This document shows positions 50,179-55,403 of a DNA stretch of 64,000 bases, piece by piece. Every line of letters begins with the position of its first letter. The first letter of the stretch is position 1. Origin of the DNA: Escherichia coli (GTDB lineage: Bacteria; Pseudomonadota; Gammaproteobacteria; Enterobacterales; Enterobacteriaceae); the NCBI RefSeq assembly GCF_024700885.2, contig NZ_CP117016.1; one strand, written 5' to 3'. The position numbers were made by a program, and so were the translations under genes. Below the pieces are notes generated by a model. The model did no database searches, had not been told where the DNA came from, and worked only from the letters and a program-made list of their open reading frames with translations.

Positions 50179-51390
<1,212 letters not shown>

Positions 51391-51486
51391 CCAGGATAAT
51401 TAGCGAATATCTCAACGCCTGGGGCGTGGCGAGGTACCAGAGTGTGTATTACGTTTAAATCACATTATCTTGCAAAGGGATTGGTT

Positions 51487-51909
51487 ATGAACTCACTACG
51501 TTATTTTGATTTTGGTGCTGCACGCCCCGTTTTGTTATTAATTGCCCGTATCGCCGTGGTCTTAATTTTCATTATTTTTGGTTTTCCCAAAATGATGGGT
51601 TTTGACGGTACGGTCCAATATATGGCCTCGCTGGGCGCGCCAATGCCGATGCTGGCAGCGATTATTGCGGTAGTTATGGAAGTGCCCGCCGCGATATTAA
51701 TCGTGCTTGGCTTTTTCACCCGTCCGCTGGCGGTGCTGTTTATTTTCTACACGCTGGGTACGGCGGTAATTGGTCACCATTACTGGGATATGACCGGCGA
51801 TGCGGTTGGGCCATATATGATTAATTTCTGGAAGAATGTCAGTATCGCTGGCGCATTCCTGCTGTTGGCAATTACCGGGCCGGGGGCAATTTCTCTCGAT
51901 CGGCGTTAG
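51487..51909 (+). CDS. yphA: DoxX-family inner membrane protein YphA
   Basis: Start set to [14 protein letters not shown] (140 aa). Confidence 0.85.
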
Positions 51910-51931
51910 GAAAGATGCCGGATGCGGCGTG

Positions 51932-52687
<756 letters not shown>

Positions 52688-52791
52688 ATCAGCATACTTG
52701 TCCTTAGCCTTCTGCAGTGACAGCTGGTAGTACAGCGTGCTTCTGGCCAGCCCTGCAGCCTTTAACAGGTCAGGCTGGCAGTGTCCGCACC

Positions 52792-53313
52792 TCAGGCTCC
52801 GGATGACTTTCGTTTTTTCTCCAGCTCCTGGCGCTTTTTTTCCAGGAGATGCTCCTGCATGGCTTTCAGATATGCATTTTCTGCGCGAAGATAACGCAGC
52901 TCATTCTTCATCTCTTCCGGCGTCATGTTTGCCTCGTTTTCATGGGTATCATCAGAACGGGTCATGCTTTTCTCCTTCCTGCGCCTGATAAAGGCCTCAT
53001 TACCAGATTTGCGGTAGCCTTTTATCCAGTTTTTAACCGTGTTGTGGCTGGGAATGTTAAACCGGGCAGCTACCCGGGGTAGAGACTCAGAATGCCCGAG
53101 AGCATAAAGAACCACGCAAAGTTTATCTTCAGGAGAATAGCTACGCTTGTGTCTGCAATCCAGTGCCCGAGGACCGTGAAGAAGAAAAAGATTAATCCAG
53201 TGTGAGAGGCTGGTGTGAGAAAGTTGAAAGAGTTTTGCCGTAGAAATGATGCCTGCATGACCAGCCAGGTAATGATTTACAGCGGCAAGTTTTACTTCAA
53301 ATGAATGTTTCAT
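52792..53313 (-). CDS. IS3-family transposase OrfA (HTH), InsJ-like
   Basis: 173 aa from MKHSFEVKLAAVNHYLAGHAG; leucine-zipper-like C-terminus. Confidence 0.9.
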   Translation of the reverse strand: MKHSFEVKLAAVNHYLAGHAGIISTAKLFQLSHTSLSHWINLFLLHGPRALDCRHKRSYSPEDKLCVVLYALGHSESLPRVAARFNIPSHNTVKNWIKGYRKSGNEAFIRRRKEKSMTRSDDTHENEANMTPEEMKNELRYLRAENAYLKAMQEHLLEKKRQELEKKRKSSGA

Positions 53314-53392
53314 AAACTGCACCTTCAGATGTCAGATTATGTCCAACATTTGGGGTGCAGTTCAGTGAACGCCTTATCCGGCATTTTATAAA

Positions 53393-54265
53393 TTACAGTA
53401 ACGCAACCCGCAACGACATCTCTGAAGTTGTTGATTCCCCTGGTGCAAGCGCAATGAGATCCCCCCCTTCCGGGCGATGATGGTCATCCGGCGCATGGCT
53501 CATCGGTTCCAGACAGAAGAAATCAAACGCATATCCTTTATCAAACGCCGGGTCGGAAACAAAGATGAAATAACATGGTGCAGGTGGCGTCGTTTCCATG
53601 ATGATGGCATAACCCTCCTGCGGCTGCTCGATGCGGGCCTGACCATTCCATCCGGCAAAGCCATTGTTCACCCACTGGTGCGGCAACGGCGCGAGCTGGT
53701 TGAAATCCAGCTCCTGCGGTAGCTGCTCGCAAAACTCACCCGCCAGCCACTGCTCCCGCTCCAGCCAATAACCGCTCGCCTGCGCCTGAATCCGCGTTTG
53801 TGGTGACAACGGAAAATAAGGATGCAAGCCGGTACCAAATGGCAGCGTCTCTGCCCCTTGATTGGTGACAGAGAGCGTCACCGTCAGCGTATCTGCCGTT
53901 AAATGAAACGCCTGACTTACCCGATAGTGATAAACACCGCTGCGATGTTCATACACCAGACACAAGCTATCTTCGCTGCGCGAGACACATTGCCACTGCC
54001 CCAGCCAGCCGTCGCCGTGCAGATAGTGCGCATCCCACTCAACATTCGGTTGCAGTTGATACTCACGCCCCTGCCAGACAAAACGATTGCCGCTCACCCG
54101 GTTTGCAAACGGCACCAGCGGAAAACAAGAGGCATCGGTTGCCACACCGCTTTTTTTACCGGGACGTAAGAGCGGCGTCGCGTCACGCCAGAAGCCCTCG
54201 ATGACGCCGCCCCGGTCAGAAACGTCCAGCTTTAGCGGCCCGTGAGATAAGGTATAGATGGTCAT
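53393..54265 (-). CDS. yphB: Aldose 1-epimerase family protein YphB
   Basis: 290 aa. Confidence 0.9.
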   Translation of the reverse strand: MTIYTLSHGPLKLDVSDRGGVIEGFWRDATPLLRPGKKSGVATDASCFPLVPFANRVSGNRFVWQGREYQLQPNVEWDAHYLHGDGWLGQWQCVSRSEDSLCLVYEHRSGVYHYRVSQAFHLTADTLTVTLSVTNQGAETLPFGTGLHPYFPLSPQTRIQAQASGYWLEREQWLAGEFCEQLPQELDFNQLAPLPHQWVNNGFAGWNGQARIEQPQEGYAIIMETTPPAPCYFIFVSDPAFDKGYAFDFFCLEPMSHAPDDHHRPEGGDLIALAPGESTTSEMSLRVALL

Positions 54266-54276
54266 CCGCTGACTCC

Positions 54277-55338
54277 TTAATCCGGGAAGTTAATCACAAC
54301 TTTCCCGCATTTACCGCTCGCCATCAGCGCATAGGCATCTCCTGCCTGTTCCAGTGAGAAGCGATGGGTAATGGCATTACGCGGCCACAGTTTCCAGTCC
54401 GTTAAATCGTGGGCGCATTTTTCCATATGGAATAGACTGGTCACCCAGGAGCCAATAATCCGCCGTTGATGATGCATCAGATCAGCGCTAACCTCGAACT
54501 CCACTTTTCCGGTTTCCCCGATGTAAACCACCCGTCCCCAGTCATCAGTGGATTGCAACGCCAGTAAGCGACCTGCGGCATTACCGGAACAATCGAGCGC
54601 AACATCCGCGCCACCGTGGGTGAGTTCGGCGATAATCTGCGGCAGACCTTCGGTGGTTGCTAAATAGCCGTGATCCATCACCCCTAACTGTTTCGCCATC
54701 GCCAGACGTTCCGGCAGCATATCAACGCCGATGATCCTTTTTGCACCGCGACCTTTCGCCAGCATCATCGCCATCATGCCGACCGGCCCCAGACCGACCA
54801 CCAGCACGTTATCACTGCCGGAAACTTCGCCGCGCAAAATCCCTTCATACGCTGTACCAACGCCGCAACTGATAAACGCACCATCTTCATAGCTCAGCGC
54901 GTCCGGGAGCAGGATCAGATCTTTTTCTTCCGCCAGCAGGTATTCAGCATGGCCGCCGTCACGCTGCCAGCCGTAAGCCGCTTTTCCTTCGCCAGTACAA
55001 GAGATAGGAAAACCACGACGGCAGTTCGGGCAAAAACCACAGCCAGAAATATGATACACCAGCACGCGGTCGCCCTCTTTAAAATGGCGGCAGCCTTGCC
55101 CCATCGCCACAATTTGCCCGCACGGTTCATGACCGTTGATAAATCCCTGGTATAACGGTTTATCGGGTGCCGCCGCCGTAGCGCGGTGCTGGTGGTAGAT
55201 ATAGTGGACATCGCTTCCGCAAATTCCGGAGGATTTCATTTTGATCAGTACCTGGTTAATACCCGGCGTCGGCACCGCAACTTCCCGCAGATCGACGGTC
55301 GAATTTCCTGGTAAATAAGCTGCCAGCATCGTTTTCAT
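54277..55338 (-). CDS. yphC: Zn-dependent alcohol dehydrogenase family protein YphC
   Basis: Start set to MKTMLAAYLPGN (353 aa); GHE...CG zinc motifs. Confidence 0.88.
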   Translation of the reverse strand: MKTMLAAYLPGNSTVDLREVAVPTPGINQVLIKMKSSGICGSDVHYIYHQHRATAAAPDKPLYQGFINGHEPCGQIVAMGQGCRHFKEGDRVLVYHISGCGFCPNCRRGFPISCTGEGKAAYGWQRDGGHAEYLLAEEKDLILLPDALSYEDGAFISCGVGTAYEGILRGEVSGSDNVLVVGLGPVGMMAMMLAKGRGAKRIIGVDMLPERLAMAKQLGVMDHGYLATTEGLPQIIAELTHGGADVALDCSGNAAGRLLALQSTDDWGRVVYIGETGKVEFEVSADLMHHQRRIIGSWVTSLFHMEKCAHDLTDWKLWPRNAITHRFSLEQAGDAYALMASGKCGKVVINFPD

Positions 55339-55403
55339 AAATCCCTCATTAACAATACGATTAATTTTCATCCCTGCCGCACCCGCGCCAGGGGCGTTAA
55401 GGT

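Follow-up and report, generated by a model that had tools for sequence, protein, structure and literature searches.

We analysed a 64,000-nucleotide stretch of Escherichia coli DNA (referred to throughout as the window), in which an insertion sequence splits a REP between yphA (51442-51909) and yphB (53393-54265). The coordinates of the features are collected in Table 1. The element was 100% identical over its 1432 nt to copies that RefSeq calls 'IS3-like element IS1397 family transposase', its terminal repeats read TGAAC...GTTCA, and the combination by which IS3-family members are recognized, TG...CA inverted repeats with a short (3-5 bp) target duplication, was found here with a duplication of 4 bp. 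The earlier note on this DNA had assigned the element to the IS3 family, and the RefSeq identity, the ends, the duplication and the transposase match to NF033516 described below agree with that assignment and identify the element as IS1397. RefSeq names yphA as DoxX family and yphB as aldose 1-epimerase, and the ORFs at 50188-51390 and 54277-55371, judged from their translations, are presumably an HcaD-type ferredoxin reductase and a YphC-type zinc-dependent dehydrogenase; the neighbours of the IS are thus ordinary E. coli chromosome genes. When complete E. coli genomes were searched, the empty site (both flanks, one TCAC, no IS) aligned gaplessly in 5294 of 5426, and the yphB-IS junction was found in 33 of the 5426. 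IS1397 matches were present in 3485 of these 5426 genomes, with a near full-length copy in 1707 of those with matches, and 1255 records were at least 99% identical to the element. A DNA-identical copy in E. coli PCP07014 (L001:3001-4432) lies in another REP, between smrB and a fimbrial operon, and is flanked by the duplication GTCA. REP targeting is the published hallmark of IS1397, a REP/BIME-specific insertion sequence (Bachellier et al. 1997, Clement et al. 1999), and insertion into a REP fits both DNA-identical copies.

Table 1. Features of the IS1397 locus (positions in the window unless a contig is given)
Feature	Position	Strand	Remarks
Complete IS1397 (IS3 family)	51933..53364	-	1432 bp, ends 5'-TG...CA-3'
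Left inverted repeat (IRL)	53340..53364	-	TGAACTGCACCCCAAATGTTGGACA, 25 nt; 84% complementarity with IRR
Right inverted repeat (IRR)	51933..51957	-	25 nt
Target-site duplication, upstream copy	53365..53368	-	TCAC, in REP/palindromic unit
Target-site duplication, downstream copy	51929..51932	-	TCAC
REP half-sites flanking the IS	51912-51930 / 53369-53387		Inverted repeat
orfA ribosome-binding site	53325-53320	-	AAGGTG
orfA	52792..53313	-	173 aa, HTH domains; ATG 53313 to TGA 52794-52792
orfA/orfB overlap	52792..52900	-	109 nt, both frames open
Homologue of the old shift site	52861..52867	-	G AAA GCC (YLKA), non-slippery
SD-like AGGAG	52852..52856	-	12 nt upstream of heptamer; criteria of PMC4066793
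Slippery heptamer A_AAA_AAG	52834..52840	-	Proposed -1 shift site; within A7 run 52841-52835
Predicted hairpin +4..+41	52793..52830	-	38 nt, -12.4 kcal/mol; candidate stimulator
Secondary A-rich stretch	52807..52818	-	GAG AAA AAA CGA AAG; in-phase tetramers A_AAA and A_AAG, in hairpin loop
orfB frame after shift	51965..52834	-	289 codons and stop; HTH_21 and rve DDE core
Catalytic D295	52432-52430	-	WVTDIT
Catalytic D355	52252-52250	-	HSDQG
Catalytic E391	52144-52142	-	VMENFF
TAGTG in clade relatives	L088:630-634, L090:581-585, L091:728-732, L092:2017-2021, L093:2014-2018, L094:560-564		orfA TAG overlapping orfB-frame GTG

Two consecutive, partly overlapping ORFs were read from the minus strand of the element, the frame of orfB being -1 relative to that of orfA. 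The RefSeq CDS begins at the same orfA ATG; the alternative start GTG 53322 was rejected because it lies inside the AAGGTG ribosome-binding site and because both RefSeq and the deposited OrfA begin at ATG 53313. OrfA carries HTH_28 / HTH_Tnp_1 domains, and the exact protein was found on at least 1000 contigs in public collections. Toward its 3' end the minus strand reads CAG GAG CAT CTC CTG GAA AAA AAG CGC CAG GAG CTG GAG AAA AAA CGA AAG TCA TCC GGA GCC TGA, in which base 52840 is the third base of an orfA zero-frame codon, so that the phase of the heptamer is GA|A AAA AAG, and the orfA TGA comes 48 nt past the heptamer start. The -1 frame contains no stop from 52900 via the heptamer up to the orfB stop at 51967-51965. 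Within the overlap this is the sole in-phase X_XXZ_ZZN heptamer. The bare string AAAAAAG occurs 20 times in the window (both strands) against 14.9 ± 4.0 expected; it is not rare there, and the string alone is therefore no evidence. What lifts this heptamer above chance is its phase, its place in the overlap and its invariance. A second AAAAAAG of the element (52038-52032) is out of phase and lies in orfB, and was set aside as irrelevant. The earlier note had placed A_AAA_AAG in the orfA zero frame near the 3' end and had described the -1 frame as running open into orfB; the phase read directly at 52840..52834 and the retranslation from 52900 to 51965 bear out both statements, and a -1-frame stop between the heptamer and the orfB core, which would have spoken against them, was looked for and was absent.

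When orfA was fused with the -1 frame at this heptamer, a protein of 449 aa resulted, with the junction ...AMQEHLLEKK|APGAGEKTKVIRSL..., an exact match of NCBI WP_260834445.1, 'IS3-like element IS1397 family transposase'. The junction LLEKK|APGAGEK was shared by all 12 NCBI IS1397 transposases compared (WP_260834445.1 and 11 more). The NCBIfam model NF033516 (IS3 family transposase) was matched over its whole length (1-369 of 369) across the junction with 385 bits, the cut-off being 160 bits, and the Pfam matches of the fusion comprised HTH_28, HTH_21, rve (75.7 bits) and rve_2. The catalytic residues are spaced D(59)D(35)E, and the seventh residue past the E is a K (ENFFGHLK). In RefSeq the CDS of the DNA-identical copy consists of two pieces, runs between the same ATG and stop and bears the note 'programmed frameshift'; further intact IS1397 copies are annotated likewise. 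The exact database match, the NF033516 match and the RefSeq annotation are consistent with the view of the earlier note that the element should be able to make OrfAB by frameshifting. The element is an intact IS1397 and its frameshift site is ordinary, already known and annotated; the locus is correctly annotated as a single transposase gene that uses a programmed -1 frameshift, rather than as a pair of genes or a pseudogene. The identical DNA in PCP07014 carries RefSeq WP_112045710.1, whereas the fusion at the heptamer junction is WP_260834445.1. In the present copy a P (CQPDLL) replaces the S, and a T (GLTAEN) the A, of the 11 other NCBI IS1397 transposases; the P codon is CCT at about 52773-52775, and its C strengthens a second hairpin (+55..+88 past the heptamer).

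The sequences around the heptamer were judged by the criteria of Sharma et al. 2014 (PMC4066793), which place the start of a hairpin 4-10 nt past the motif, and by these criteria both the SD-like sequence and the predicted 38-nt hairpin qualified. The hairpin opens with a C-G pair and then three further pairs, and at 0.33 kcal/mol/nt it is weaker than the IS3-family mean (0.45 ± 0.12 kcal/mol/nt, 271 members; PMC4066793). Measured against sliding windows its ddG/nt was 0.13, in the top 4% of the 38-nt windows in the IS and above 0.09, the lowest value published for a set of 20 IS elements in which stimulators are likely (PMC4066793); its z-score was only -1.95, its start at +4 lies at the near limit of the permitted spacing, and the hairpin rule is permissive, since 56 of the 57 relatives introduced below also pass it. 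Pair counting across seven clade members showed the +4..+41 hairpin to be conserved and gave no covariation in it (355 of 500 shuffles reached the observed values), and RNAalifold on the seven returned a weak consensus of -16.35 kcal/mol with a covariation term of +0.59. The long-range GCCRG/CUGGC pairing that RNAalifold preferred was without compensatory changes, and an alternative closing helix C(A/G)GG:CCUG (+65..+68) was conserved and carried no covariation signal; both were rejected. The hairpin is one pair short in the variant L128. A scan of the element against Rfam at E<=10 gave two chance-level matches and no frameshift-element family. The downstream stem-loop that the earlier note had proposed to look for was thus found as a rule-conforming hairpin at +4..+41, and covariation support for it was absent. 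On the upstream side, AGGAG in this copy is an arm of a small, perfectly paired hairpin (AGGAG-CAT-CTCCT; 52847-52856, minus strand), which is weakened by CTTCT in other IS1397 variants and might influence how accessible the SD-like element is.

Among the E. coli IS1397 variants sampled (95-100% identity), the heptamer and AGGAG were invariant, and the one change in the hairpin turned a U.G pair into U-A. The wider clade was aligned from IS1397 and six elements obtained via OrfA homologues (L088, L090-L094; one from Erwinia), whose OrfA proteins are 53-59% identical to that of IS1397. In this alignment GGAAAAAAAGCGCC was invariant in 7 of 7 members, with flanks averaging 83% column identity. 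A DNA-pattern scan of metagenomes for the clade, made irrespective of the heptamer, yielded IS1397 itself for the most part, along with one new member (L099) and unrelated genes encoding AENAYLK. The new member also keeps GGAAAAAAAGCGCC in phase, and GGAG stands 12 nt upstream in six of the seven aligned members and in L099, that is, in 7 of 8 clade members. Two members (L090 and L092) have a -1-frame TGA two codons before the heptamer, which confines a shift to the heptamer or a later position.

A later position is available in the secondary A-rich stretch, and we considered whether the main shift might take place there (52818-52807), giving the junctions ...ELEKK|TKV... or ...KKRK|VIR.... 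Its A_AAA and A_AAG tetramers are both in phase and within the overlap, of all tetramers A_AA.G shifts most readily in E. coli (PMC4066793), and the stretch is found in most clade members; but it is broken in L092 (GAG ACA AAA CGA) while the first heptamer is invariant, it falls within the loop of the predicted hairpin, so that no stimulator is positioned to serve it, and it offers tetramers, which heptamers in general outdo (PMC4066793). Moreover, a fusion made at this second A run was absent from a collection of 15 billion proteins in which the heptamer fusion is present. We therefore regard a main shift at the second stretch as very unlikely, and its tetramers as possible minor shift sites beside the heptamer.

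Further observations were made on the coding ends and on damaged copies. In the six aligned clade relatives the orfA TAG overlaps an orfB-frame GTG (TAGTG), which gene callers take as the orfB start; this arrangement suggests possible translational coupling for the production of OrfB alone. IS1397 has lost TAGTG: its orfA extends 4 codons further, and the TGA at its end is not overlapped by any start codon. Decayed IS1397 copies were recognized in two human-gut metagenome contigs (L120, L121), in ZJ3920 (L082) and in ESM2.2 (L084). One A is lost from the A7 run in L121 and from CGAAAG in L120, 5 nt are deleted downstream of the site in ESM2.2, and the ZJ3920 copy is annotated 'frameshifted'; the homopolymer indels may represent true mutations or may stem from errors of assembly.

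A genome-wide scan identified 57 distinct relatives outside the clade (L002-L081; 50-58% OrfB identity) from Bacillota, Bacteroidota and Proteobacteria, including elements of Klebsiella, in all of which an in-phase A_AAA_AAG/A encodes the LKK of (R/M)(A/M)ENAYLKK. More distant OrfA homologues likewise read ENA(Y/F)LKK. The sequence ELRYLRAENAYLK is identical in IS1397, but the next codon there is GCC, and the IS1397 heptamer (LLEKK) lies 27 nt, or 9 codons, downstream of the ENAYLKK position. The old position reads YLK(A/G) and is non-slippery in IS1397 as well as in L088, L090-L094 and L099. In 35 of the 57 relatives GGAG stands exactly 12 nt upstream of their own site, where it derives from the M-E-N codons; GGAG also stands exactly 12 nt upstream of the new site in IS1397, where it derives from the Q-E-H codons. 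By outgroup comparison of these sequences, the YLKK position reads as ancestral and the IS1397 position as derived. In our judgement the IS1397 clade has likely relocated its frameshift site, which would mean that heptamer and candidate upstream stimulator were re-created jointly and that OrfAB now shares an extra leucine heptad (L-x6-L: YLK...HLL) with OrfA. A plausible origin of the new site is the Glu/Lys-rich tail of OrfA, where the relatives read ...LVQEKEK.... The effect of its position on the protein is small: nine residues of the OrfAB linker (MQEHLLEKK) are now encoded from the orfA frame, which adds one leucine to the L-x6-L series. In IS911-like systems the interaction of OrfA with OrfAB regulates transposition, and IS911 has a leucine zipper. 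By analogy with that zipper, the extra shared leucine might alter the OrfA-OrfAB interaction in IS1397. Primary IS1397 papers aside, we found no discussion of the relocation in the literature consulted, and we make no claim to its newness; the relocated site would provide a small natural example of recoding signals migrating inside an overlap window, as well as a handle on whether the length of the zipper shared by OrfA and OrfAB matters.

We consider it very probable that OrfAB is made by classical programmed -1 ribosomal frameshifting at A_AAA_AAG. Under this mechanism most ribosomes translating orfA would stop at its TGA and release the 173-aa DNA-binding OrfA, while a fraction would slip back by one base, with two tRNA-Lys on AAA-AAG of 52840-52834, and would read on in the orfB frame to give the 449-aa OrfAB with its HTH, HTH_21 and DDE core. 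The junction peptide predicted for a slip on the heptamer is LLEKKAPGAGEK. The AGGAG 12 nt upstream would pair with 16S rRNA and probably aids the slip, the modest hairpin 4 nt downstream possibly aids it as well, and the frequency of the shift would set the OrfAB:OrfA ratio and hence the rate of transposition. The ribosome as the slipping agent, the efficiency of the shift and the role of both stimulators are what we infer from these signals. The heptamer is decoded by the single tRNA-Lys of E. coli, which has the anticodon UUU. A_AA.A_AA.G ranks with the heptamers that shift most readily in E. coli, and 72% of the heptamers found in overlaps of the IS1 and IS3 families are A6G or A7 (PMC4066793).

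The same protein could also arise one step earlier. If RNA polymerase extended the A7 run (52841-52835) by a single A, conventional translation of the resulting A8 mRNA would give an identical 449-aa product (GAA AAA AAA GCG, EKKA), so that the identity of the junction cannot discriminate between the two routes. The run has exactly 7 A's, and in IS1447, also of the IS3 family, 7 A's are enough, with about 16% of transcripts shifted in each direction on the native A9 (PMC6211511); the run in IS1397 thus reaches the IS1447 minimum and lies below nine, the usual minimum for transcriptional realignment (PMC6211511). However, most relatives have only six A's before the G (e.g. TTA AAA AAG), and the X_XXZ_ZZN phase and the terminal G kept in every clade member, together with the GGAG 12 nt upstream, are all irrelevant to RNA polymerase. 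In those IS3 subgroups that have been studied well, -1 frameshifting is translational and takes place at A6G (PMC5771124, PMC6211511). The relocated site, which lies in the correct phase and again has GGAG at 12 nt, likewise favours ribosomal over transcriptional slipping, and we regard transcriptional slippage as unlikely in this element.

Whether programmed ribosomal frameshifting at the heptamer serves a working element is a separate matter, and the motif could in principle persist intact in an inert relic with no working transposase and no movement. The two residues that set the present transposase apart from the 11 others, the many E. coli IS1397 copies that are pseudogenes, and a simple scan of the element in which no sigma-70-like promoter was found would fit such a relic. 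In contrast, all ORFs, the inverted repeats and the DDE residues are intact, and the same DNA variant occupies a second REP with its own 4-bp duplication. The presence of the yphA/yphB insertion in just 33 of the 5426 genomes points to a recent insertion, and IS1397 is reported to be active in E. coli K-12 (Clement et al. 1999). We therefore give an inert relic hardly any credence. The earlier note had called the element probably active, which its full length, intact repeats, duplication, D(59)D(35)E triad, insertion polymorphism and second copy back as an inference; at the level of sequence it is plausible that this copy is active. The intact element would thus mark a recently acquired, probably still mobile IS1397 in the REP between yphA and yphB.

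The element agrees with IS1397 in its 100% identity over 1432 bp to the RefSeq-named copies, in its insertion at a REP centre with a 4-bp duplication and in the same OrfAB, and it differs from the deposited IS1397 transposases only by the two rare variants (S->P, A->T). Both the IS3 family and its IS150 subgroup count an annotated frameshift window among their defining features. Members of that subgroup measure 1200-1400 bp and carry two ORFs, of which orfA encodes an HTH; their catalytic residues are spaced D(57-60)D(35)E, the seventh residue past the E is a K, and an AnG window gives rise to OrfAB (PMC5771124). Matched by this list of features, the present element resembles IS150 and ISSau2 in its two ORFs, HTH_28, D(59)D(35)E, ENFFGHLK and A6G, while its 1432 bp lie slightly above the quoted 1200-1400 bp; IS1397 differs from the subgroup in its REP-specific targeting and in a heptamer placed 9 codons past the ENAYLKK position.

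The signals of IS911 and dnaX consist of A_AAA_AAG with an upstream SD and a downstream structure. IS1397 shares with them the same heptamer, the SD-like sequence upstream and, as a candidate, the downstream structure; its hairpin is weaker and closer (+4) than theirs, and the likeness is without sequence homology of the signals or an Rfam match. This layout of heptamer, upstream SD-like stimulator and downstream structure is a general one (PMC4066793). IS1447 also has an A run of at least 7 at its orfA/orfB junction, but it undergoes a +1 change through RNA polymerase slippage on A9 (PMC6211511), whereas in IS1397 the change is -1 and is associated with a phase-specific heptamer and an SD-like element. 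A metagenome contig (L103, minus strand, ~8427) carries an unrelated IS3-like orfA tail, AENAYLKE...AEKVKKKK, with the run GTAAAAAAAAAGAAAAA (A9), which from its sequence is a candidate for transcriptional slippage and not for a heptamer shift. Enterobacterial relatives of IS1397 are the ISKpn1-like elements of Klebsiella, Kosakonia and Enterobacter (L016, L022, L036, L059), among which L016 is, judging from its host species, probably ISKpn1 itself. They share about 52-54% OrfB identity, the same ELRYLRAENAYLK and an A_AAA_AAG window with IS1397, but their heptamer encodes the LKK of YLKK, whereas IS1397 reads YLKA there and has its proposed shift 27 nt later.
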